DNA from: Firmicutes bacterium ADurb.Bin193
Lineage (GTDB): Bacteria > Bacillota > Clostridia > Monoglobales > Firm-18
Assembly (NCBI GenBank): GCA_002070105.1
Contig: MWCQ01000012.1
Span: forward strand, 6,754-70,753
Reading direction: 5' to 3'
Length of the DNA: 64,000 bases
This document shows, piece after piece, positions 1,521-40,671 of the stretch (position 1 is the first letter of the stretch; the number at the start of each line of letters is the position of its first letter). The position numbers were made by a program, and so were the translations under genes. Under the pieces are notes generated by a model. It was given only the letters and a program-made list of their open reading frames with translations. It was not told the origin of the DNA and ran no database searches.

Positions 1521-2471
1521 TCAAGCAGCTGTTCTACCGAAGCGGAAGGCTGTGTCACCTGTGAGGTTTTTGGTGAGGAGGTTTCTTGCGGTTTCAAATT
1601 CTTCTCCGATAAAGCCGAGGCGCAGGAGCCAAGTTCTCATTGCAAATTTCTTGTTTTCCTTTTGCTGTTCTTTGGGACTTGCGGTTTTCACTGTCTTTGC
1701 CATGTTGGAAAGCGCAAGGCAAAGCTGAATGTAGCTTTTAAGCTGTCCGGCGTGAAGTCCGCCCCTGCGTTCCGCTGTCGGGTTGTCAAACTGGAAAAGT
1801 CTGAACTCTACGGTGCCCTTGGTGAAAGTGGCGTGCAGGTTGAGCATATGGTAGCGGCTGTCATTGTAATGCTGGTTTCTGCCGTAGGATGCTCCGTTGC
1901 CCTCATACCAAATGTCTGCAAGTTGCGCCATCGTTGAGGGCTTTTTCTTATTAAGCCTTGCGAGGAAGGTAGGATCAACCGTCCTGCAGTAGCGGTTAAT
2001 GCGATGGGTGTCGAGTTTCAGGGCTTCTGCTAAAAGGCTCTCGTGGCTTGCCATTATGTTGGCGAGGTTTCTGAGGGTCTGCGGTGTGTGTCCATTCGCA
2101 CCGATGTGAATGTGAACTCCGCAGCCCTGGCTTGGATTGCTGATCGCTCCGCCTTTTCTAAGAACTCTGATGAGTCCCTGCAGTGTTTCGATGTCCTCGT
2201 AGCGAAGGATTGGTGTAACCAGTTCGCATTTTTCGCTGTCTGTGCCTGCAATGCTGACATCCCTTTGAAATTTCCACTCTCTGCCTTGTGCGTCCCATGC
2301 AGAAACCGTGTAGTAACCGTTTCGTCTCGCTGTATCTTCGTATCTGCCTGTGCCGAAATACTCGGCTGCAAGTTTCGCCGCCTTTGAGCGGGTTATGTGG
2401 TTCATCTCAACTTCTACTCCAATGGTCTGTTTTTTCATCTCGGCTATCTGAGTCCTTGTTGTTTCCTTCAT
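1521..2471 (-). CDS. Amidoligase (glutamine-synthetase-like COOH-NH2 ligase; the 'putative amidoligase enzyme' family)
   Basis: GVEVEMNHI..., CELVTPIL, GCGVHIHIG, TVEFRLFQ blocks. Start chosen at ATG 2471 (MKETTRTQ), preceded by GGAGGAACAAAAA. Confidence 0.75.
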   Translation of the reverse strand: MKETTRTQIAEMKKQTIGVEVEMNHITRSKAAKLAAEYFGTGRYEDTARRNGYYTVSAWDAQGREWKFQRDVSIAGTDSEKCELVTPILRYEDIETLQGLIRVLRKGGAISNPSQGCGVHIHIGANGHTPQTLRNLANIMASHESLLAEALKLDTHRINRYCRTVDPTFLARLNKKKPSTMAQLADIWYEGNGASYGRNQHYNDSRYHMLNLHATFTKGTVEFRLFQFDNPTAERRGGLHAGQLKSYIQLCLALSNMAKTVKTASPKEQQKENKKFAMRTWLLRLGFIGEEFETARNLLTKNLTGDTAFRFGRTAA

Positions 2472-2607
2472 TTTTTGTTCCTCCGTGTCGGTTGTTTTCC
2501 CCTTAGGGTATCTGTATATTACCGTCACTTTGAGGATATATCCAGTCATTTTCGAGATATAAATCGGCATAAACTACACAATCTTACAGGGGTATTATTT
2601 GTGTATA

Positions 2608-2832
2608 TTATTCCTCGATTCTACGGCAGGAGTCTTCACCGTATACAACGTTCAGACCACAGCCGTTGTCCCATTTTACCATGATGCTTGCGGCATCGTC
2701 CACACCGATAACTGTACCTTTGGTGCCTATGGGAGGCGCTTGAACATCGTCCATGCGGACAAGTTCCACCCGGCAGCCTTTCGGATACTGCCTGCGAACC
2801 ATATCCACAATTTCTTTACTCGGAAAGTTCAT
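2608..2832 (-). CDS. DUF4314-like small protein
   Basis: YPKGCRVELVRMDDVQAPPIGTKGTVIGVDDAASIMVKWDNGCGLNVVYGEDS matches my memory of DUF4314. Start ATG 2832 follows AAGGAGG. Confidence 0.55.
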   Translation of the reverse strand: MNFPSKEIVDMVRRQYPKGCRVELVRMDDVQAPPIGTKGTVIGVDDAASIMVKWDNGCGLNVVYGEDSCRRIEE

Positions 2833-3532
2833 CTTTCGCACCTCCTTTGAAAGCAGAAGAGCCACTTAGATTCCGCAGCAGGATTTTACGTTCTTTTTTA
2901 TACTCTTCGCCGATAAAGCCGAGGCGGAGCAGAAAGCAACGAAATGCATATTTTTCGTTCTCAACTTCTTTTTCGGTGGTATTGACCCGTTTCTGATTCC
3001 TGCTCATGTCACACAGCGCGCATATGAATTTGCTGTAGGCATTGACTTCTTCCGGGTCAGGCACGGAATCAAACCATGGAAATGATATCGTATCTTCTTT
3101 GAGCTCAATGGGGATTGCCGGAATGCCGAACGCCTTGCTGATAAGACTGCCTTTGGCATCAAGCAGTTTCGTTAAGTTTCCGACCGATACCTTGTCAAGC
3201 GGAAGGGTTATAACGAGTCCCGTTTTATTGCTGATGTCGGCGCGATGCTCGCCCGTGTTTGGGCTTGTTTCCTCTACTGCATTATTCTCCAAGGGTTCAG
3301 GCTCAAAGCCCTGTTCGGCAAGCCGTGCCACAAGGTTTTCAACTTCCTCGCTGTCGGCTCTGTCATCGAGGCTGACCGCTCCATTCTTGTCTATGGTGAA
3401 GTAGCCCACTTGATAGGCCATAGACGGCATTCCGAGGTATTTTGCATCTGCCCCGGCAACTTGGCTGATTGCGCTGACGAGCTTTTTTCGCTCCGTGCCG
3501 GTCACATTGAATCTGAATGTGAATGTTGCCAT
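2816..3532 (-). CDS. Hypothetical protein; its C-terminal LLRLGFIGEE module is shared with the amidoligase
   Basis: ORF 2816..3538. ATG 3532 follows AGGAGG. C-terminus KYAFRCFLLRLGFIGEEYKKERKILLRNLSGSSAFKGG. Confidence 0.5.
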   Translation of the reverse strand: MATFTFRFNVTGTERKKLVSAISQVAGADAKYLGMPSMAYQVGYFTIDKNGAVSLDDRADSEEVENLVARLAEQGFEPEPLENNAVEETSPNTGEHRADISNKTGLVITLPLDKVSVGNLTKLLDAKGSLISKAFGIPAIPIELKEDTISFPWFDSVPDPEEVNAYSKFICALCDMSRNQKRVNTTEKEVENEKYAFRCFLLRLGFIGEEYKKERKILLRNLSGSSAFKGGAKDELSE

Positions 3533-32100: not shown

Positions 32101-33915
32101 CAACCTATTGAGGTGAAAACGAGAGATGAATCTCCGGATGCCACCATAACTAAGGATGAAGTTGGATCAAAGGTATTTAATATTACTGGCCATGCTGCAG
32201 GTCAGATTGCTTCAGTGATAGAGATCTTGAGAGAAATCTTTACTACCGATGAAAATGCAGCGGATATGTTTACGTCGGCACGAAGAGAGGTCTTAAAATA
32301 CCAAATTGTATCAGAATGCTTCAGAAATGTACACAATGCAGATTGGCAAAAGCGATGGTACGATATTCTGAAAAGAGCGTTCGCGAATGGACCTAGAAAG
32401 AATATAACAATTAATGTATCAGGAATACTAATGCATATAAAGCTTAATGAGGCGTCCGGCGGCGAGCATATTGTTTGCTATAATCCCGAATTCGATGATT
32501 GTCGAATTGATTATTGGAAACTTACAGCCAGAGAAATTCAGCGAGATGTGCTGGGAGATGGTTCCCTTATTAAAGAAATGTGGACACCAGATTTTGATAC
32601 AGCGGAAGACAATGATGTGGTAGTTAATGATTCAGTTGATGCAATAATTGATAAAGATGACGCTGTTGATGATATATATGAAGAAGGAGATATTACAAGA
32701 GATATTCATCCTCCGGAAAGTATTCCATCAAGCAATTTGGCGGTAGTTACCGAACCGCGTGAGAAGAACGGTGCGCCAGTTATTTCGGGCACTCCTGTTC
32801 TGGAGACTGAAAATGGCGTTAGCAAAGAAGAGATTGAACAGTTGGTTAAGGATTTTAAGAGATCCTGTGGTGATTATCATGTTTCCTTGCGTGAATGCGA
32901 TGCAGAAAATACAGTTGTTGGGCCAAGCGTTATACGTTTAAAATTCCGTTTGGGTCGAGGACAAGCATTGCAGGGGCTTTCCAGCCATCTAGAGGATATT
33001 GGAAGAGAGATGAAGCGTACCGGCGTGATTATCCAACAGGTGCCTAATTCTGATGAATTACTTCTAGATGTACCACGGCTTCAACGCGAAAAGGTTTTAT
33101 TTAGGGATGTCATATCTTCTTTGCCTAGGGTAACGTCTCCTGAGCAACTGTATTTCCCCCTTGGAAGAACACCTAATGGTGTAGATTTAATTGAGGATCT
33201 TGGCCAGATGCCACATATGCTGGTTGGTGGTAGCACTGGATCTGGAAAATCTGTATTCCTCTTTACAATGCTTGCTGCAATGTTGATGACTCATCCGCGA
33301 AAGGAAGATCTTCAGTTGATTTTATCCTCGTCAAAGCTGGAGGATTTCATACATTTTGAAGGATTACCCCATCTTTATTCGGGGAGTGTTATTTCTGATG
33401 CTATCGAAGCAACGAAAGTGATCAAGGAGGTTATTTTCGAAGAGTCTGAACGCAGAGGGAAACTACTTGCAGAGGCTAGAGTCGCAAACATTATCGAGTA
33501 TAACAAGATAGCAGAGGAGAAACTCGCTCCAATCGTAGTAGTGATTGATGAGTTTGCTGATTTGGCAGATCAATTAGAAAATAAAAAAGAACAAAACGCT
33601 TTCTATAAACCTGTTCAACGCATAGCACAGGCTGGACGTAGTAGAGGGATACATCTTGTTATCTGCACACAACGACCTGAAGCAAAACTTGTACCTTCAA
33701 CTACAAAAGCACAATTAAACGGCCGTGTTGCTTTGCGTGTTAATGATGGCATTTCATCTCGCATGATTATCGAGACACCGGATGCTCAGTACCTTCAGAA
33801 GCACGGAGATATGATTTACAAGAATGGTGATGTGGTTGAACGTGCCCAAGGTTATTTGATTGAAATCGAGGAACTAGATAAAATCGTAAGCTCAGTAATT
33901 AATGGTACATTCTAA
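29167..33915 (+). CDS. 1582-aa protein: unknown N-terminal region, PD-(D/E)xK-like nuclease motif, acidic linker, C-terminal FtsK/SpoIIIE alpha-beta ATPase motor
   Basis: ERADLVGLYYDDQSNTLHIQPIEVKTR (D963, E982, K984). VGPSVIRLKFRLGRGQALQGL...VIIQQVPN (FtsK alpha-like). MLVGGSTGSGKSVFL (Walker A, K1361). IVVVIDEFADL (Walker B). GIHLVICTQRP. NGRVALRVNDGISSRMI. Confidence 0.8.
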   Translation: MMDKQALVAELLRKHLGCVKTGIIIKGIEGINPESIVSQLVDTNAQLYTAIIGYGKVTKSHEANYEITDLIEKAVLWRSMPECARRILVFIKNDTDKLHSLAEFDVISTRDVSRFLLEQQLKNDNNTPTHNFWTALKDTSDYYTFDALYEFVSAVSRSDNSAEAIPENMWRINLLSDSKILGTKSDPKERLAKNRDLIFSIGQLREDSRKKLSRSLARSKVSDKERLQKAYHSLQSLYKYGKRETLRDLDMETVQELFSASQESDNKRKKALPPKPEDPSNIEETLPESTPIKPKELDVLISDAVVFGGDEELENIQDLLKALIKHYDPETEENDDDIPPIGGIFGDRNIVLENHQTDLRKLVGKFCNLSAWGGLMETDESVLKDAISADITNAKFFNPESVNSIISFSGGIDGSQPLFDFIVQFDAQFDAKGLDNAERFTAIISNLKEQRAKLYDSIDMIMYHPVLLFGASEEKRQVLVDYIQAWERLYHAFCVNEPIMRQISAGGTSFIARAILLLDVLYVKTPKEWKGLLLPLHPIYLWRFYEVFRTLPNKKSTLSDEDKDALSAVLSQLPQVLSFIIANSIVTESSEDRILPCSGSIEMLPTFENKTNRYLGNDGTESIEEILTRWVGFAPYTRNEIRICSVDAPDLIGIIRQVKSFMDKNSCKRVVYDVYLTRNQNGNTELSKLDYAGKDYEIGEYIKEDRIFIGIKNVRSVNDVKSALDFRPVHVAFYFDQSSYAIEFGPNSHNLYINPLVITYDYDFDEIQHKGSIFPSSEMDSGLIGDYHKLMRSADIITNNMNPRTIYNGNADMTSVVSTIEDGQTQWLVVADRDTNNYQPEKAIPIGEMQYDKRMVNAWASDESRIISQYLNLLRGYNLYPKAETLIDILRQFGHIASNGLISIPKFGADAQAIDNKRKGLIGTLFAASWYMKKHPEALVASLDDDKARLWLQNRKYGNERADLVGLYYDDQSNTLHIQPIEVKTRDESPDATITKDEVGSKVFNITGHAAGQIASVIEILREIFTTDENAADMFTSARREVLKYQIVSECFRNVHNADWQKRWYDILKRAFANGPRKNITINVSGILMHIKLNEASGGEHIVCYNPEFDDCRIDYWKLTAREIQRDVLGDGSLIKEMWTPDFDTAEDNDVVVNDSVDAIIDKDDAVDDIYEEGDITRDIHPPESIPSSNLAVVTEPREKNGAPVISGTPVLETENGVSKEEIEQLVKDFKRSCGDYHVSLRECDAENTVVGPSVIRLKFRLGRGQALQGLSSHLEDIGREMKRTGVIIQQVPNSDELLLDVPRLQREKVLFRDVISSLPRVTSPEQLYFPLGRTPNGVDLIEDLGQMPHMLVGGSTGSGKSVFLFTMLAAMLMTHPRKEDLQLILSSSKLEDFIHFEGLPHLYSGSVISDAIEATKVIKEVIFEESERRGKLLAEARVANIIEYNKIAEEKLAPIVVVIDEFADLADQLENKKEQNAFYKPVQRIAQAGRSRGIHLVICTQRPEAKLVPSTTKAQLNGRVALRVNDGISSRMIIETPDAQYLQKHGDMIYKNGDVVERAQGYLIEIEELDKIVSSVINGTF

Positions 33916-33932
33916 GTGAAGGAGAAAACTAT

Positions 33933-34628
33933 ATGCAGGCGACTTCTATGTATGGAGACTTAATTGTTGGCACTTTTATAAAAGAAGAAAAGAATCGATT
34001 TATTTGCCGTGTTAGGGTCTCTGGAATAGAAACCGTCTGCTATATTCCTTCATCCTGTCGACTCAGCAACTTTATTGACCTTGAAGGAAGACAGGTCTTA
34101 CTAAAACCAAACGCATCCAGAAAGACACGCACGGAATACTCTGTTTTTGCAGTTAAATACAAACGAGGATTTATTCCTGTTAATCTTTCTTTAGCTAATC
34201 GAGTTGTTGAAGAACAAATTAAAAACCGCAGATTTTCATTCTTAGGAAACCGAAAAAATGTAATTCGAGAGGCTATGATAGATGGATATAAAGCGGATTT
34301 GTATATCAGTGACACACAGACAATAATTGAAATTAAAAGCATTCTTTCATTTGAAAAAGAAACTGTATTTCCTACTGTATATTCAGAACGTGCACTAAAT
34401 CAGTTAATAAAAATTAAAGAACTATTACTACAGGGATATACGGTACATTATATGTTGATTTCATTAAACCCTGTTGTTAAGCAAATCACATTAAATCAAA
34501 ATATGAGTGATTTTTATGAGCATTTTCTTGAGTGTATAGCTTTGGGGATGCAGTGCTGCGGGTATAGCATTTATTTACAAAGTGGCATACCAACCACGCA
34601 TTCAAAAACTAACGTATATTGGTGCTGA
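33933..34628 (+). CDS. sfsA: SfsA-like nuclease (N-terminal OB-like region plus PD-(D/E)xK core)
   Basis: GTFIKEEKNRFICRVRVSGIETVCYIPSSCRL..., GYKADLYISDTQTIIEIKS (D...E-I-K), and size (231 aa) match the SfsA family. AAGGAG lies 7 nt upstream of the ATG. Confidence 0.7.
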   Translation: MQATSMYGDLIVGTFIKEEKNRFICRVRVSGIETVCYIPSSCRLSNFIDLEGRQVLLKPNASRKTRTEYSVFAVKYKRGFIPVNLSLANRVVEEQIKNRRFSFLGNRKNVIREAMIDGYKADLYISDTQTIIEIKSILSFEKETVFPTVYSERALNQLIKIKELLLQGYTVHYMLISLNPVVKQITLNQNMSDFYEHFLECIALGMQCCGYSIYLQSGIPTTHSKTNVYWC

Positions 34629-34734
34629 TCCAGTTGATGTTTATTCATCTAAACTTAATACGCAGAACAAATATACGAAAGTCCCCGAACTTCTTGATTT
34701 GAGGCCATTCTTACAACTGAAAGGAGATTATAAT

Positions 34735-35793
34735 ATGTTAGATAGTACGATTACTTTATTTTCCTCTGATAGCAGACCTCAGTATGTAAAAGACGTTTTT
34801 AATGTATTAGCTCTACCCCATGGGAGTATGTACAGATTTAGGTATAAAGAGAAATACATACATAGCGATGTAATTGAACACTTAGGCAGTAGTAAAATTA
34901 AGGGTACTATTGCGTTAATAGCGTTCAGGACAAAACTGGGTATAGATAAAAATGAGCAGATTTTAATCCCAGTGCGTTGGGCCTCTATAACAAATATTAG
35001 GAAAAGTTCTGATTACTACTTAATTGATTTTACAGTTTTAGGTTATGCCGTCTTCAATAAAGAATTTGAAAATTGTCGAAATTATGAAGATATAAATTCG
35101 CTGGCAAAAAAGTATTTTTCCTCACAGGATAAGATTGACGCTTTTGTTATAAAAAACACGCCAAATATTGTCATCCCATTTGCAAATACAAAGCCAAATA
35201 AAATAAATGAAGATGATGAGAAAGATCGCTGGTTGAAAGTAACGGAACGTCTCAGTATCTATCCAAAGTTTGAAAAATGCTATTACTTTAAGGCATCAAT
35301 AATAAAAAATGGGCTTGCCAAGCTTTTTAACCCTAATTCTGTAATGGAAGGCGGAAGAACAAACATCAACATTGAATACAATAACTTTTGTGATATTTCA
35401 GACTCTGAAATAAATGTTGAGTACGATGAATGCTTATTAATACCCTCCAGAGATAAAAAAACCAAGATTGAATGCAGATATGATTCTACTATTTATGCAT
35501 TTCAAGCGAAAGGGATTTTATCAGATACACCTACGCAAATAACATTAAACTGTTATAGCTATAAAGACACTGAAAATAATCAAGACATTGAAACGATGAT
35601 AAAGATTCCTTTAATAATAAAAAGGAATCGTTGTTATTTGTTTGCTCGAGTCCTTTTATCGCTCGTTGGCGCAATAGGTATCGGTTTACCAGGAGTTTTA
35701 TCTGAATCTACCCCCTCCAAATGTAAAGTTGTTTTATTTGTTATAGGTTCAATATTCATTGCAATTAGCTGGTTGATACCGTATAAGGAGTAG
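34735..35793 (+). CDS. Hypothetical protein with two C-terminal transmembrane helices
   Basis: ATG 34735 lies 8 nt after AGGAG (the ORF track start 34582 would overlap sfsA). C-terminal CYLFARVLLSLVGAIGIGLPGVL and VVLFVIGSIFIAISWLIPY. Confidence 0.5.
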   Translation: MLDSTITLFSSDSRPQYVKDVFNVLALPHGSMYRFRYKEKYIHSDVIEHLGSSKIKGTIALIAFRTKLGIDKNEQILIPVRWASITNIRKSSDYYLIDFTVLGYAVFNKEFENCRNYEDINSLAKKYFSSQDKIDAFVIKNTPNIVIPFANTKPNKINEDDEKDRWLKVTERLSIYPKFEKCYYFKASIIKNGLAKLFNPNSVMEGGRTNINIEYNNFCDISDSEINVEYDECLLIPSRDKKTKIECRYDSTIYAFQAKGILSDTPTQITLNCYSYKDTENNQDIETMIKIPLIIKRNRCYLFARVLLSLVGAIGIGLPGVLSESTPSKCKVVLFVIGSIFIAISWLIPYKE

Positions 35794-35795
35794 CT

Positions 35796-36164
35796 ATGAT
35801 ATATAAATTTCTGAAAATAAAAAAAGCTATCCAGAAATCTTGGGGAGTTGATACAGCATATAAGGATGATATCCCCAATTGGTCAACCGATAATCCAGCA
35901 GCTGGGCAGTGTGCTGTTACTGCATTGGTAATTCATGACTTTTTTGGTGGCCAAATATTCAGCGGAGTGTCACAAGATGGTGTGGTTCATTATTGGAACT
36001 ACGTACATGGCATAAAAATTGACTTAACTCGAAGTCAATTTAAAGAGACTAAAAAATTCTCTGATATTATTGAATGGGCATCGAATGATTTACTGAATAC
36101 CGGTAATGTCAAGGAACGCTATGAGATTCTTAGAAATCGAGTAGAAATGTATATGCAAAAATAA
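35796..36164 (+). CDS. Small conserved protein, YunG-like (uncertain)
   Basis: 122 aa, starting 2 nt after the previous stop. W..DTAY...WSTDNPAAGQCAVTALVIHDFFGG resembles my memory of YunG-family proteins. Confidence 0.4.
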   Translation: MIYKFLKIKKAIQKSWGVDTAYKDDIPNWSTDNPAAGQCAVTALVIHDFFGGQIFSGVSQDGVVHYWNYVHGIKIDLTRSQFKETKKFSDIIEWASNDLLNTGNVKERYEILRNRVEMYMQK

Positions 36165-36210
36165 AACAAGAGAAAGAATGCAGTGAGATACAAAATCAAG
36201 TATATATTTA

Positions 36211-36303
36211 TTGACATATTCCCAAGAACGCACAAAAACTGTTGACCTGTTCCCGAGAACAGAAATTGCACGAAAAAACCTGCTCGACCTATCCCCGCGA
36301 ACG
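36211..36303 (+). repeat. Three imperfect ~20-nt direct repeats, each followed by an A-rich tract
   Basis: TTGACATATTCCCAAGAACG (36211), TTGACCTGTTCCCGAGAACA (36242), CTCGACCTATCCCCGCGAACG (36283). Each is followed by ...CGAAAAAAC-like runs, and similar GTGCGAAAAACC / GAACGAAAAAC recur at 36396 and 36451. Confidence 0.7.
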
Positions 36304-36517
36304 TAAAAAATGAAAAACACATACCAGACATCAATCTGATGCTATCGTTCCATGTTGAGACGGTGGTATTGATGTCAAGGGTAAAAGAGTGAGTGTGCGA
36401 AAAACCCTTATATATCAAGGCTTTCAGCACACATGGGCGTAAAACCCATTGAACGAAAAACATGAAAATATCGCTTCGTGGAAACAAGTCCAAAGGGGCT
36501 GTTTTGATAGTCAAGAG

Positions 36518-36631
36518 GTCAGGTTAGATGTCAGTACTCGGTGAGTGTACAGGTTAGATGTCAGCCTTCGCGAGTGGTCAGGTCAGATGTTTTTTCGGAA
36601 GTTTTTGAGGTTGTGTGAACAGGTTGGATGT
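36518..36631 (+). repeat. Four phased direct repeats immediately upstream of the PRTase-like gene RBS (candidate operator or iteron array)
   Basis: GGTCAGGTTAGATGTCAG (36518), GTACAGGTTAGATGTCAG (36548), GGTCAGGTCAGATGT (36578), GAACAGGTTGGATGT (36618). Spacing is 30, 30 and 40 nt. Confidence 0.75.
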
Positions 36632-36650
36632 AAAAAGGGAGGAAAGCATA

Positions 36651-37541
36651 TTGGATACAAAAGTTGTAAAAGATATTTGTAGGGAGAAATGGGCAGCAGG
36701 GTTTGATGAGGATACAAAAACAAAGAAAGCATTAGCTCAATTTGATGTTTGGCTTGCTCAAATACCTGATAAATACAAAGAACTGAGTCTTGTTTTAATT
36801 CAAAATCTTGAATATTTTCCCCGAGACTTAATAAACAAGTTGCTGATGGAATTACATAAGAAGCTGATTAAACTGCCAGCCATTAGTGATGATAATACAA
36901 TATATGCATATATCAAGTCAAAAGACGGAAAAACGAATAGTTCGGATGAGTATTGGACAATGTACAAGTTATTGAATGATGTTAATCGTGAGTTTTGCTA
37001 TGAGAATATAAATGCCATAAATAATTGGCAATGGGCATATGTGAAAAATATTGTGTTTATTGACGATTTCAGTGGAACTGGAAAAAGTATAATCAAGGAG
37101 TTGAAAAAGAATGAAAGTCGTTATATAGGAAAGAATATATATTTTATTACAATTTGTGTGATGGAAGATGCAATTCAAAAAATCAAGAATTATTCTAAAT
37201 TAAAAAAAATGAATATAGTACCAGTCTTTTGTTTTATGCATAAGAAAACTTTTGCACGAGAATTATTTGAAAACAATGAAGACGCCAAAGACTCATTTAT
37301 CGCCTTGACAACATATTTAAAAATACCAGAGTGGGAATATCCATTAGGATTTGAAAAATCGGAGGCGCTTGTTGCTTTTCATAATAACACTCCAAACAAC
37401 ACGCTTTCGATTATCAGATGTGACACCAAAGAATATAAGTCTTTATTTCCACGCAGGCATGAGAATAAACCTTTTTGGGATAAAATGAAATCACAAAGCA
37501 AAGGCAGAAAAGTTGCAAACTATAAAAATAAATTTGTGTAA
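36651..37541 (+). CDS. Phosphoribosyltransferase (PRTase)-like retron accessory protein
   Basis: NIVFIDDFSGTGKSII resembles the PRPP-binding loop of type I PRTases. TTG start at 36651 lies 8 nt after GGGAGG (ORF-track start 36615 is inside the repeat array). Confidence 0.55.
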   Translation: MDTKVVKDICREKWAAGFDEDTKTKKALAQFDVWLAQIPDKYKELSLVLIQNLEYFPRDLINKLLMELHKKLIKLPAISDDNTIYAYIKSKDGKTNSSDEYWTMYKLLNDVNREFCYENINAINNWQWAYVKNIVFIDDFSGTGKSIIKELKKNESRYIGKNIYFITICVMEDAIQKIKNYSKLKKMNIVPVFCFMHKKTFARELFENNEDAKDSFIALTTYLKIPEWEYPLGFEKSEALVAFHNNTPNNTLSIIRCDTKEYKSLFPRRHENKPFWDKMKSQSKGRKVANYKNKFV

Positions 37542-37554
37542 AGGGGATGAATCT

Positions 37555-37878
37555 GTGGTTAATTATCAGAAACAACTAGCACTGCTCTATTTTAAAACGT
37601 CTGGTAATGAATATGACTTATTAGAACTTATGCAACTCTTGGGGTTGCGGCAAAATCAACTGGATTTGATTTTATCAGAACTAAAAAAAGATGGTTTTAT
37701 TTGTATCAGTAATTATGAAATCACAATTACTGAAAAAGGAATCCTACATCTTGCTGCAAATAATGTCTCCAGCAATGCAGATGATGGAATACAATATCCG
37801 TTAAAGAATATCGTGAGTGAAAACTTGATGCCGTTGAACGAACCATATGTACCCAAGAAGTTTTTAACTAAAATATAA
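37555..37878 (+). CDS. Small winged-helix DNA-binding protein (retron accessory)
   Basis: DLLELMQLLGLRQNQLDLILSELKKDGFICISNYEITITEKG. GTG 37555 follows AAAGGGGA; the alternative ATG 37513 overlaps the upstream gene. Confidence 0.5.
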   Translation: MVNYQKQLALLYFKTSGNEYDLLELMQLLGLRQNQLDLILSELKKDGFICISNYEITITEKGILHLAANNVSSNADDGIQYPLKNIVSENLMPLNEPYVPKKFLTKI

Positions 37879-37884
37879 AACGAT

Positions 37885-38092
37885 TAATATATGCATGGAA
37901 TAGAAGGCGAATGACAAGTTGTCATTCTTAGCAAAAATGTTTCTTTGTCCCATAGTATGATTCTTTCAAAGAAATAATCATACTATGAAACCATTGGAAC
38001 TGCAATGGTTTCACGCATCCGCACTTTATCTTTATTTGCAATAAAGATAAAGTATGTTTCAATATCAGAATTAGTATTTCATGCAAATATTA
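37885..38092 (+). ncRNA. Retron msr-msd-like ncRNA, unit 1
   Basis: Flanking inverted repeat TGCATGGAATA (37892-37902) / TATTTCATGCA (38075-38085, one G-U), extendable with AT pairs. Conserved TAGAAGGCGAA. Hairpins at 37909-37927, 37951-37987, 37987-38012 and 38023-38053. Conserved CAGAATTAGTATT. Confidence 0.55.
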
Positions 38093-38093
38093 T

Positions 38094-38273
38094 AAGTGCG
38101 CTATATAGAAGGCGAAAAGCAAGTTGCTTTTCACAGTTGCAAAGTTTCTTTGTATTACATCTTTTGAATTCAAAGACTTCAAAAGATGTAACCAATTGGA
38201 ATTGCAATTGGTTACATCAATATTACTAGTAATATTGATGTATGTTAATAACAGAATTAGTATTAGCGCACTT
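38094..38273 (+). ncRNA. Retron msr-msd-like ncRNA, unit 2 (directly upstream of the RT)
   Basis: Perfect 10-nt inverted repeat AAGTGCGCTA (38094-38103) / TAGCGCACTT (38264-38273), in a2/a1 fashion. TAGAAGGCGAA. Hairpins at 38114-38132, 38155-38191, 38192-38211 and 38213-38242. CAGAATTAGTATT. The RT RBS and ATG follow at 38280 and 38291. Confidence 0.65.
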
Positions 38274-38290
38274 TCATTTAGGAGAACGCC

Positions 38291-39307
38291 ATGGAAAATT
38301 ATATTGATAGGCTTAAAATATTATTAAGAGAGTCTGGATACGGCAAGCATTATTCAGAAAAATGTATCGAATATGCAAGACGATTAATCGAAAATAATCT
38401 ACCAGTGATATTCGATATAGACCATTTTTCGTTGGTCAGTGGTGCGCCCAAAGAACTGATTTTAAAAATACTGTTTGCAGATTCAAATTATTATTCGCTG
38501 GCTCAAATACCTAAAAAATCCGGTGGATTCAGAGACTTGCATATTCCGTCGGTAGAATTAAAGTATTTACAATGTTGGATTTTAGATAATATTCTTATTA
38601 AAGTGCAAATTTCACCATATGCGACAGGTTTTTGCAATAATAAATCAATCATTGATAATGCAAAAATGCACATTGGTAGCGAATGCATTTTGAATATGGA
38701 TATTAAAGATTTCTTCCCCTCTATTAAATTCACAATGGTATTTAGAATTTTTGCATATTACGGATACACAAAAGAGCTTTCCTTTGTATTTGCAAAGTTA
38801 TGCACATATGAAGATTCTTTGCCTCAGGGCTCTCCTGCGAGTCCGTGTATTTCCAATATAGTAAGCTTGAGAATTGATAAAAGGCTTTCGCTATTAGCCG
38901 AGAAATACAACGCTTGTTATTCGAGATATGCAGATGATATAACTTTTTCCGGAAATGGCGGAATCAAAAAGTTGATAGAAATCACCGCCAAAATATTAAC
39001 AGAAGAAGGGTTTTCTTTAAACACAAAAAAAACTAGAATGCAATTTTCGCACCAGCGCCAAGAAGTTACTGGATTGATCATTAATGGTGGCACTATTAGA
39101 GTGAATAAGAAATATAAGCGTGATTTATATCAAATATGCTATTATTGTAAAAAATTTGGTGTTGATAGCCATCTACAAAAAATCAAATGCAACAAAAGTT
39201 TTTATAAAGAGCATTTATATGGAAAAGCATATTTTGTGAACATGGTAGAACCTGAGGAAGGTAAAAAACTTTTTAAAATACTAAATGAAATTCAATGGGA
39301 TTATTGA
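38291..39307 (+). CDS. Retron-type reverse transcriptase
   Basis: GGFRDLHIP, NAKMH (retron NAxxH), NMDIKDFFPSI, LPQGSPASP, YSRYADDITFS (YADD), QEVTGLIIN (VTG). 338 aa. Confidence 0.9.
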   Translation: MENYIDRLKILLRESGYGKHYSEKCIEYARRLIENNLPVIFDIDHFSLVSGAPKELILKILFADSNYYSLAQIPKKSGGFRDLHIPSVELKYLQCWILDNILIKVQISPYATGFCNNKSIIDNAKMHIGSECILNMDIKDFFPSIKFTMVFRIFAYYGYTKELSFVFAKLCTYEDSLPQGSPASPCISNIVSLRIDKRLSLLAEKYNACYSRYADDITFSGNGGIKKLIEITAKILTEEGFSLNTKKTRMQFSHQRQEVTGLIINGGTIRVNKKYKRDLYQICYYCKKFGVDSHLQKIKCNKSFYKEHLYGKAYFVNMVEPEEGKKLFKILNEIQWDY

Positions 39308-39316
39308 GGTGATAAT

Positions 39317-39892
39317 ATGGAATTGGAAAAGGCAAATAAGATAATCAATGATTTAGAGTTGCTTATCAATGGCATTGATCCATCTACTAATCATAAATTT
39401 GAGGTTGATACAATATTAAATAACAAATATAACAACCTTCTTTTAAGAGAAGTTCATAAAATGCTTTCCGAATACATGAAAGTTTGTGATATTAATCATG
39501 CTTTTGACAAACGAAGAAAACAATTTTTTCACATTGATGATTTACGGAAGAAAGAAATACCAATTTCAGAAGACGCAATTCCAATTAGTACTTTTGCATA
39601 TACACTTAATGATTTTATTGACACCACAACGATGAAAAAAGTAAAAGCATCTGAGATAACCAAGTGGCTAATGATTGAGGGTTACTTAGAAGAAACAGAA
39701 CACGATGACGGTAAGGTATTCAAAATTCTTACAGCTAAAGCTAGTGAAATTGGTATGATAAAGAAAACAAAAAAGAATTCTTACGGAAGAACTTATGATG
39801 TAAACTTATACAGTGCTAAGGCACAGAAGTTCATTGTTGATAATTTGGATACTATCTCACACTTCATTAAAACACACTTTACAAATGCATAA
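39317..39892 (+). CDS. Hypothetical 191-aa protein downstream of the RT (possible DNA-binding accessory)
   Basis: Starts 9 nt after the RT stop. The C-terminal half (ASEITKWLMIEGYLEE...DGKVFKILTAKASEIGM...YGRTYDVNLYSAKAQKFIVDNL) looks like a small helical DNA-binding module, but I cannot name the family. Confidence 0.45.
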   Translation: MELEKANKIINDLELLINGIDPSTNHKFEVDTILNNKYNNLLLREVHKMLSEYMKVCDINHAFDKRRKQFFHIDDLRKKEIPISEDAIPISTFAYTLNDFIDTTTMKKVKASEITKWLMIEGYLEETEHDDGKVFKILTAKASEIGMIKKTKKNSYGRTYDVNLYSAKAQKFIVDNLDTISHFIKTHFTNA

Positions 39893-40051
39893 AGATATTA
39901 TTGAAGAAGACATACATTGAAATTCCTATTATGGATAATATGACACAATTGATCATTAATGAAATTATTTTATCTCATATGTCATATTAATCGCTTTCAT
40001 ATTATATTTGGGAAGTGTCATAAAACCGTATAATTCTAAAAGTACTGTAGT

Positions 40052-40084
40052 AGCAGGTGCCATGAATGACACCTGCTATTTTAT
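40052..40084 (+). terminator. Rho-independent terminator closing the retron operon
   Basis: AGCAGGTG-CCATGAATGA-CACCTGCT followed by ATTTTATT. Confidence 0.6.
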
Positions 40085-40092
40085 TAAATCAG

Positions 40093-40671
40093 CTAGTCGT
40101 ATTCTTCCACATCCACTGTCACGCCGGACTTGAATTCCACAGTGAATTTTTCCTCGTAGACGGTGACCTTCTCAATCAACCTCCGAACAAGCTGCTCATC
40201 ATATTTGGTAAGAGCGGTGGATTGTTTCTTTAGGAATGTGCTCATGTCAGCAATCCGCTTTTTGAGCTCATCACGATTGGCGCTTTCAAGCTGGAGCTTT
40301 TGTTTTTGGTCACGCAGGTGGTGAATCTCGTCGCCGACCTTTGCATAATCGGCATTAGAAGTGGCAAGCCTAAGAAGTTCTGTCTGCAGCTCCTCCAGTC
40401 GCTTATCAATATCCGCCAGGCCCTTATTGCTTTCATGGCTTATTACAGCGGCAACATTGTCCCGCAGGGTAATGAGAAAGCTGTCCTTATCGCATAGTGT
40501 CCGATTGATGGCGGTGACAAGCACCTGCTCAATTTGGCTTCTCAAAAAATCTATGGAGCGGGAATTGACAGAAAAATTCATTCCATCGCTTACCGTGCCA
40601 CAAAGGCGGAATGTCTTGATTTGCCGGAAACAACGGATATCATACGCAACGGTAAGGTTGAGCGGCAACAC
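40093..40671 (-). pseudogene. C-terminal fragment of a large serine recombinase (catalytic N-terminal domain missing)
   Basis: Coiled-coil and C-terminal region typical of large serine recombinases: ...LEELQTELLRLATSNADYAKVGDEIHHLRDQKQKLQLE...YDEQLVRRLIEKVTVYEEKFTVEFKSGVTVDV. No resolvase domain upstream; an IS fragment abuts instead. Confidence 0.65.

Follow-up and report, generated by a model that had tools for sequence, protein, structure and literature searches.

A type III-A retron operon with two tandem, diverged ncRNA genes upstream of a single reverse transcriptase

Retron reverse transcriptases (RT) prime DNA synthesis from the 2'-OH of a branching G, and copying starts at the base 5' of the a2 repeat. 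Genomes that carry several separate retrons exist, for example, that of Myxococcus xanthus with Mx162 and Mx65, with more than one msDNA per cell; in this case, each msDNA has its own RT and a separate locus. The canonical retron cassette contains one ncRNA gene per RT, and both Mx162 and Mx65 are listed as type XIII (PMC7736814). In the type III-A variants III-A1 and III-A2, a PRTase-like effector and a winged-helix (WH) protein are encoded separately (Mestre et al. 2020, PMC7736814). In Retron-Eco11 (type III-A3), phage helicases act on the msDNA, which is 101 nt long and contains two DNA stem-loops, and the effector depletes PRPP (PMC12746101). Tandem msr-msd units on one transcript, served by one RT, have been constructed in the engineered 'multitron' arrays, which consist of synthetic Eco1 ncRNA copies with editing donors; each unit yields its own RT-DNA, that is, the arrangement works biochemically (Gonzalez-Delgado et al., PMC10370050). 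The first-pass annotation of the locus described here regarded a natural retron with two templates as unusual, and the literature bears this out: the only tandem arrays found were the engineered ones, and no natural tandem retron ncRNAs were found in a survey that included PMC7736814, PMC12746101, PMC10849725 (an experimental census) and PMC10370050 and did not cover a September 2026 preprint (10.64898/2026.09.22.753630; 'ncRNA array', reverse transcriptases).

The window, that is, the whole 64,000-nt stretch of DNA from Firmicutes bacterium ADurb.Bin193 that was analyzed, contains a retron operon with the following protein-coding genes:

36615-39892, + strand: retron operon (PRTase-like effector, WH, two ncRNA units, RT, 191-aa ORF)
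36615..37541, + strand: PRTase-like effector gene (308 aa for the listed ORF; the gene may actually begin a few codons further downstream)
37513..37878, + strand: winged-helix accessory gene, given as ORF bounds, with the stop at 37878
38291..39307, + strand: retron reverse transcriptase, 338 aa; AGGAG at 38281-38285 precedes the ATG
39317..39892, + strand: conserved 191-aa ORF that starts 9 nt after the RT stop

By gene content and HMM matches, this is a type III-A retron. The effector ORF matches the Pfam family PRTase-CE (PF24390; 4.6e-34) and the PADLOC model PRTase_III-A (2.2e-65) and contains a PRPP-loop-like motif, VFIDDFSGTG; compared to the retron PRTase motif Gx14PNNxP, it carries G-x14-PNN-T-L, such that PNN is kept and the final P is replaced by L. 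The WH ORF, which is syntenic in all relatives, is recognized by PADLOC WH_III-A (2.1e-20) and reaches 0.0025 and 18.2 bits with Pfam wHTH-PRTase_assc, under the cut-off of 27; the gene probably starts near position 37555, its relatives being 102-111 aa long. The RT matches Pfam RVT_1 and, among the PADLOC retron RT models (range from 1e-54 to 1e-136), scores best with RT_III-A (3.7e-136); with NCBIfam retron_St85_RT, it scores 234.3 bits against a cut-off of 235. Its motifs are NAKMH at 123, YADD at 213 and VTG at 259, and the NAxxH, YxDD and VTG signatures are invariant in 32 relatives. An NCBI protein from the MAG Firmicutes bacterium ADurb.Bin193 matches the RT with 100% identity.

The order of PRTase, WH, ncRNA and RT on one strand is that of type III-A (PMC7736814), and so are the terminal inverted repeats of the ncRNA, the G right after the 5' repeat and the short msr hairpin. 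Unlike type III-A, with one ncRNA gene and one long msd stem-loop, the present locus contains two complete ncRNA genes with three msd hairpins each, as well as a conserved ORF of ~190 aa after the RT and a PRTase with Gx14PNNxL instead of Gx14PNNxP; the two ncRNA genes, the multi-hairpin msd and the extra downstream ORF are departures from the canonical cassette. Similarly to Retron-Eco11, a PRTase-like effector is combined with an ncRNA region between the effector and RT genes and a predicted multi-hairpin msDNA, and the inverted repeats form a bipartite stem with a bulge that is directly followed by the candidate branching G. Retron-Eco11 differs in its single ncRNA, the fusion of PRTase and WH in the effector, the lack of the downstream 190-aa ORF and its origin from Proteobacteria, and no sequence similarity between the ncRNAs of the two loci was detected. 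Here two ncRNAs are combined with one RT in one operon, in contrast to the separate loci of M. xanthus, and, unlike the multitrons, this is a natural, old array, the units of which have diverged in a1/a2 and in the stems and are both under selection.

The downstream ORF, of ~190 aa, is found 9-10 nt past the RT stop in nearly all relatives, to ~52% RT identity. The 191-aa protein matches no family in Pfam, PADLOC, NCBIfam or PHROGs; its AF2 model (pLDDT 85.6) is weakly similar to wHTH regulators, the best Foldseek match in the PDB being at E 0.04. This ORF is probably a fourth component, not described before, of the type III-A retrons in this clade. A connection between the dual ncRNA and this ORF was considered and rejected because the single-ncRNA outgroups have kept the ORF as well. 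In two loci (L087:3842-5182 and L088:3812-5140), an ISL3-family transposase is encoded right behind the RT and the ~190-aa ORF is absent; the RT cluster of these loci includes a Gemella haemolysans protein, and they have the shortest unit 2, with one msd hairpin. The G+C content of the operon is ~30-33% vs the window mean of 43%; more broadly, it is 29-37% at ~33500-40000, compared to 43% overall and 46-48% past 44 kb, and this low-GC stretch also holds SfsA-like, YunG and unknown genes. The composition suggests that the stretch with the retron is a horizontally acquired island; a blastn search of plasmid and phage collections with the operon gave no match.

The WH stop (37878) is separated from the RT ATG (38291) by a 412-nt gap (37879-38290) that accommodates two head-to-tail ncRNA units:

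37885..38092, + strand: ncRNA unit 1, 208 nt, from fold, covariance model (CM) and covariation
37892-37902, + strand: unit 1 a1, TGCATGGAATA, pairing with a2, TATTTCATGCA, at 38075-38085 (one G.U)
37885-37890 with 38087-38092, + strand: unit 1 outer stem, an outward extension of a1/a2
37903, + strand: unit 1 candidate branching G, in the ATAG box
37909-37927, + strand: unit 1 msr hairpin, GAATGAC-AAGTT-GTCATTC
37952-37986, 37987-38012 and 38023-38053, + strand: unit 1 msd hairpins
38066-38078, + strand: unit 1 initiation box (CAGAATTAGTATT)
38094..38273, + strand: ncRNA unit 2, adjoining the RT, from fold, CM and covariation
38094-38103, + strand: unit 2 a1, AAGTGCGCTA, pairing perfectly with a2, TAGCGCACTT, at 38264-38273
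38094-38106 (a1) with 38260-38273 (a2), + strand: unit 2 extended stem, 13 bp with a 1-nt bulge
38108, + strand: unit 2 candidate branching G, in the ATAG box
38114-38132, + strand: unit 2 msr hairpin, GAAAAGC-AAGTT-GCTTTTC
38156-38190, 38191-38212 and 38213-38242, + strand: unit 2 msd hairpins
38252-38264, + strand: unit 2 initiation box (CAGAATTAGTATT)
37901-37911 (unit 1) and 38106-38116 (unit 2), + strand: shared box TAGAAGGCGAA
37939-37948 (unit 1) and 38144-38153 (unit 2), + strand: shared box GTTTCTTTGT

The two units and the elements that the first-pass annotation had listed for them were all found in the sequence where it had placed them. Its assignment of the candidate branching G stands for unit 1; in unit 2, this G is at 38108, not at 38107. 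The layout is common to both units: the a1/a2 stem is followed by the unpaired ATAG-AAGGCG, the msr hairpin of 7-8 bp with an AAGUU loop, a small A/U hairpin over GUUUCUUUGU and the three msd hairpins, and then by an unpaired stretch with the CAGAAUUAGUAU box adjoining a2. The msr stems of the two window units differ by three compensated pair changes. Directly after the unit-1 a2 (window 38086-38095), there is a motif, ATTATTATAA, that is present clade-wide, even where a1/a2 differ; TATTATA, conserved between the units, lengthens the stem of the unit-1 a2 and could be a -10 box for a separate unit-2 transcript. In a scan with sigma-70 and terminator consensus sequences, no promoter-like site was placed convincingly before either unit; the scan, with 29 promoter-like sites vs 18.7 +/- 5.6 in shuffles, is uninformative in this AT-rich DNA.

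Both units are predicted to fold more stably than shuffled sequences, with fold z-scores of -8.9 for unit 1, -10.7 for unit 2 and -11.9 for the whole gap, and none of 100-200 shuffles folded as well; when the whole gap is folded as one RNA, two independent closed units result, in the MFE and centroid structures alike. A covariance model of the 62-nt msr block (R1) matches the 64-kb window only at the two units, with scores of 79.8 bits (unit 1) and 81.5 bits (unit 2), so the units are not a dispersed repeat. The region 36000-40500 contains no Rfam family with E < 0.5, and the matches at E <= 10 were discarded as spurious miRNA and snoRNA hits, the best one being a miRNA model on the minus strand; the ncRNA assignment therefore rests on the architecture and on the analogy with characterized retrons.

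For the comparative analysis, we took the loci of RT homologues in genome, metagenome and viral collections, as well as loci reached through exact-protein look-ups. In the clade with ~59-91% RT identity to the window, the gap between WH and RT is typically 380-430 nt, and the msr model yields two matches per locus. The units occupy the exact position of the single ncRNAs in outgroup loci, and the two-unit layout recurs in more than 15 independent assemblies (NCBI, ENA, JGI, Logan). The ncRNA content of the loci is as follows (the fractions refer to the 23 distinct loci with RT 59-91% identical, window included):

Both complete units (15/23): window, L081, L083, L087, L093, L095, L096, L098, L103, L200, L198, L199, L202, L105, L203
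Unit 1 full, unit 2 truncated (3/23): L085, L115, L201
Unit 2 full, unit 1 defective or absent (5/23): L089 (decayed), L015 (~45-nt remnant), L091, L100 and L101 (absent; one lineage)
One unit, RT ~52-61% identical: L109, L001, L110, L112, L114, L002, L116, L003, L004

Thus, the window and 14 other distinct loci depart from the single ncRNA gene per RT of the canonical cassette. Three apparent distant (47-64%) dual-unit relatives, L111, L120 and L121, turned out to be indel-ridden assemblies of close relatives and were not counted. The msd of unit 2 is shortened in some relatives, to one hairpin in L087 and two in L083. Part of unit 1 hairpin 3 is repeated in L096 (2215-2265), the last hairpin and initiation box are repeated in L101 (2385-2450), and a 15-nt insertion is located inside the initiation box of L085 (2885-2905); the msd seems to be prone to local duplication.

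MAFFT alignments of each unit family were folded with RNAalifold, and paired cells were counted against slid and shuffle controls. In unit 1 (alignment A4, 18 distinct sequences), 95.9% of the cells are paired, compared to 34-55% in the slid controls, and double changes occur in 26/41 pairs; for unit 2 (alignment A5, 15 distinct sequences), the corresponding values are 94.8%, 37-46% and 30/46. None of the 500 shuffles reached the observed covariation values; because the shuffling does not take phylogeny into account, more weight should be given to the slid controls and to the many independent types of pairs. The proposal of the first-pass annotation that both units fold as RNA, for which it named RNA folding and a covariance model of homologous loci as a check, is thus supported by the fold z-scores and by covariation within the same architecture in both families; the homologous loci make a much stronger case than the two paralogous copies by themselves. 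Each of the two units in the 15 dual loci is closed by its own a1/a2 stem of 12-17 bp, with widely differing sequences: the a1 variants include TGCATGGAATA, GGTCACGTTTGGAATA, ATCACTAAAGGGATA and TAGTTGTTGAAATA in unit 1 and AAGTGCGCTA, GATGATATACTGATA, AGAGATGTGCTAATA and CTTGCTGAGTGCAGATA in unit 2. Cross-unit a1/a2 pairing within a locus is limited to 3-4 bp, apart from exceptional stretches of 6 and 10 bp; a single giant ncRNA closed by the unit-1 a1 and the unit-2 a2 was accordingly rejected, only 3-4 bp being possible (6 in one locus). In both families, little or no variation is seen in the ATAG box and the CAGAAUUAGUAU initiation box, and the G of ATAG directly 3' of the 5' repeat, the candidate branching G, is invariant in 33/33 aligned units.

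In nine relatives, unit 1 is 78-93% and unit 2 79-94% identical to the window sequence, compared to 32-67% at the four-fold sites of the RT gene; thus, both units evolve well below the neutral rate, that is, they are subject to purifying selection relative to synonymous sites. Among close relatives, unit 1 is the better conserved of the two. Alignments A4 and A5 contain 31 G.U pairs but only 6 A.C combinations in their a1/a2 and msr helices, which is suggestive of a + strand RNA. The msd helices of the same alignments show no G.U excess (13 G.U vs 16 A.C), a suggestive pattern that would follow from a need for the DNA copy, and not only the RNA template, to fold.

In the neighbour-joining tree of the RT, the loci with two units and those that once had two make up one clade, with the single-unit loci outside. 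In the tree of the msr and 3' block, the unit-1 copies of different loci group together, whereas the unit-2 copies group with most of the in-clade single units and with L109; the exception is the single unit of L089, which is placed among the unit-1 copies. This tree shows no sign of concerted evolution of the units. The distant single-unit loci are located near its root, which implies that unit 2, the RT-proximal one, is ancestral and unit 1 derived. The msr stems remain unit-specific down to 59% RT identity (L203, L201, L105, L202), with GAAUGAC/GUCAUUC kept in unit 1 and GAAAAGC/GCUUUUC in unit 2. In the evolution of this clade, then, the msr-msd gene was duplicated in tandem once, long ago, and one or the other unit was lost later on. 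Each unit was lost or truncated about three times with the protein genes intact; hence, neither is absolutely required, and there may be much redundancy between them.

When all of the fetched loci (about 200 examined) were screened for self-similarity with k-mers and blastn, two further cases of tandem units came up, L026 and L037, both in type XIII retrons. In an Acidobacteriota MAG (L026:1008-1545, JBFLVQ010000624.1), two tandem ncRNA-like units of 240 nt each, 87% alike over 201 nt and with a common msr block, precede the RT ORF (1564-3099); the proteins match SWIM_XIII (4.5e-131) and RT_XIII (1.8e-199), the a1/a2 pairs are TCACCAGTAACAGCC/GGCTGTTTTTGGTGA and TATCACGCGCCGCGACC/GGTCGTGGCGCGTGATA, and the msd stems differ between the units with full compensation (fold z of -9.5 and -6.7). 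The second case, from a Cyanobacteria MAG (L037:2026-2562, JBCDDV010000109.1), is a type-XIII-like retron, with an RT N-terminus of the same kind as in L026; its two tandem units have in common a 61-nt msr block (90% identical), with unrelated msd regions, and are closed by stems of 14 and 22 bp, respectively (fold z of -4.0 and -5.8). Together with the III-A clade, these cases indicate that tandem ncRNA genes arose at least three times in retrons. Two other candidates, L048 and L030, were rejected: neither contains ncRNA units, the former having 21-nt microsatellite-like repeats and the latter GCACTCAGCACT simple repeats. In L048 (1526-1749), ~8-10 copies of a 21-nt TTGAACCTTGAACTTTAATCT-like repeat are located upstream of an Acidobacteriota retron-type RT.

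Taken together, we consider it likely that this is a type III-A retron operon with a fixed tandem msr-msd duplication in which both units are functional ncRNAs and the one RT produces two msDNAs. The case for two structured RNAs is strong, and we infer, on good grounds, that each is a source of msDNA; one enzyme would thus probably make two different small DNAs, which we have not found reported for natural retrons. Co-transcription, reverse transcription of both units and the msDNA ends are all predictions. In the + strand transcript, each unit would fold separately, with the a1/a2 duplex presenting the G of ATAG|AA (37903 and 38108); the single RT would recognize the msr hairpin, prime from the 2'-OH of this invariant G, begin copying at the CAGAAUUAGUAU box just 5' of a2, proceed across the three msd hairpins toward the GUUUCUUUGU box and stop near the msr/msd boundary. 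The predicted products are a pair of msDNAs, ~125 and ~105 nt long, with three DNA hairpins each, that would have in common the hairpin-loop motifs TCAAAGA and TTGGAAYTGCAA (template strand) and differ in their stems. As the best guess, by analogy with Retron-Eco11, the PRTase effector would be kept in check by the RT-msDNA complexes as long as the msDNA is not acted upon by a phage factor, for example, a helicase; a pair of msDNAs might form a heteromeric complex or provide a broader and more robust sensor.

The closest competing explanation, which we deem unlikely, is that both units are conserved structured RNAs of which only one, probably the ancestral, RT-proximal unit 2, is reverse-transcribed, the other being an RT decoy or competitor, a scaffold for WH and PRTase or a cis-regulator of RT translation. 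Such a division of labour fits the observations that either unit is dispensable while the protein genes remain and that the clade-wide unit-specific msr stems could reflect different partners. However, both families keep everything that priming and templating would specifically require, namely, closed a1/a2 stems with the invariant ATAG G right after the stem and the initiation box adjoining a2, and the Watson-Crick character of the msd hairpins (the 13 G.U and 16 A.C) looks as if a DNA copy must fold. Furthermore, in the three lineages that lost unit 2 (L085, L115 and L201), unit 1 is the only full ncRNA and hence must suffice for the RT.

The layout itself could have another cause, the repeats being DNA-level elements, such as protein-binding or recombination sites, a terminator or an attenuator, or else an assembly artefact. 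The winged-helix DNA-binding protein encoded next door and the terminator-like minus-strand scores that the msr hairpins reach in a simple scan are compatible with the former possibility, but the recurrence in more than 15 independent assemblies, the 31:6 ratio of G.U to A.C in the a1/a2 and msr helices that points to + strand RNA, the canonical retron ncRNA architecture at the position of the outgroups' single ncRNA and the lack of other copies in the 64-kb window make both versions highly improbable. Least probable of all is that unit 1 is a recent, decaying and functionless duplicate, a pseudo-ncRNA without conserved structure, an outcome the first-pass annotation had itself envisaged and that is contradicted by the data. 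Tandem duplications arise easily, and unit 1 is indeed degenerate in L089 and reduced to a ~45-nt remnant in L015; yet it is structurally intact in 18 distinct loci that span 59-91% RT identity, 26/41 of its pairs covary, it is 78-93% identical where four-fold RT sites are at 32-67%, and it is unit 2, not unit 1, that decayed in three lineages.

Under the preferred reading, with both units as templates, the repeated loss of either one with the protein genes intact argues for partial redundancy, whereas their long joint persistence in most lineages, with stems that stay unit-specific, speaks for some benefit beyond redundancy, such as a heteromeric complex, a broader trigger range or robustness to anti-retron factors. 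More tentatively, and with a probability that we would put somewhat below even, natural 'multitrons' might be functional in this Firmicutes III-A clade and in at least two type XIII retrons, with the two msDNAs per RT being non-redundant, either because they form a heteromeric complex with the RT, the PRTase, the WH protein and the 191-aa protein or because they respond to different phage triggers.

Retrons have been defined, classified and engineered as one ncRNA, one RT and one or more effectors, and a natural diverged pair of ncRNAs departs from this scheme. Annotation pipelines that halt at the first ncRNA match will miss second units. Since one RT has to accommodate two different msr stems as well as two a1/a2 sequences, the positions that are invariant in both units map what it reads, a map that is useful for the design of orthogonal or multiplexed retron editors, and the lineages without unit 1 or unit 2 are natural knock-outs for the contribution of each msDNA. 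The msDNA as a sensor may itself duplicate and diverge in the arms race with phages; should the two msDNAs indeed prove non-redundant, the ncRNA gene would be a duplicable, diversifying sensor module of retron immunity.
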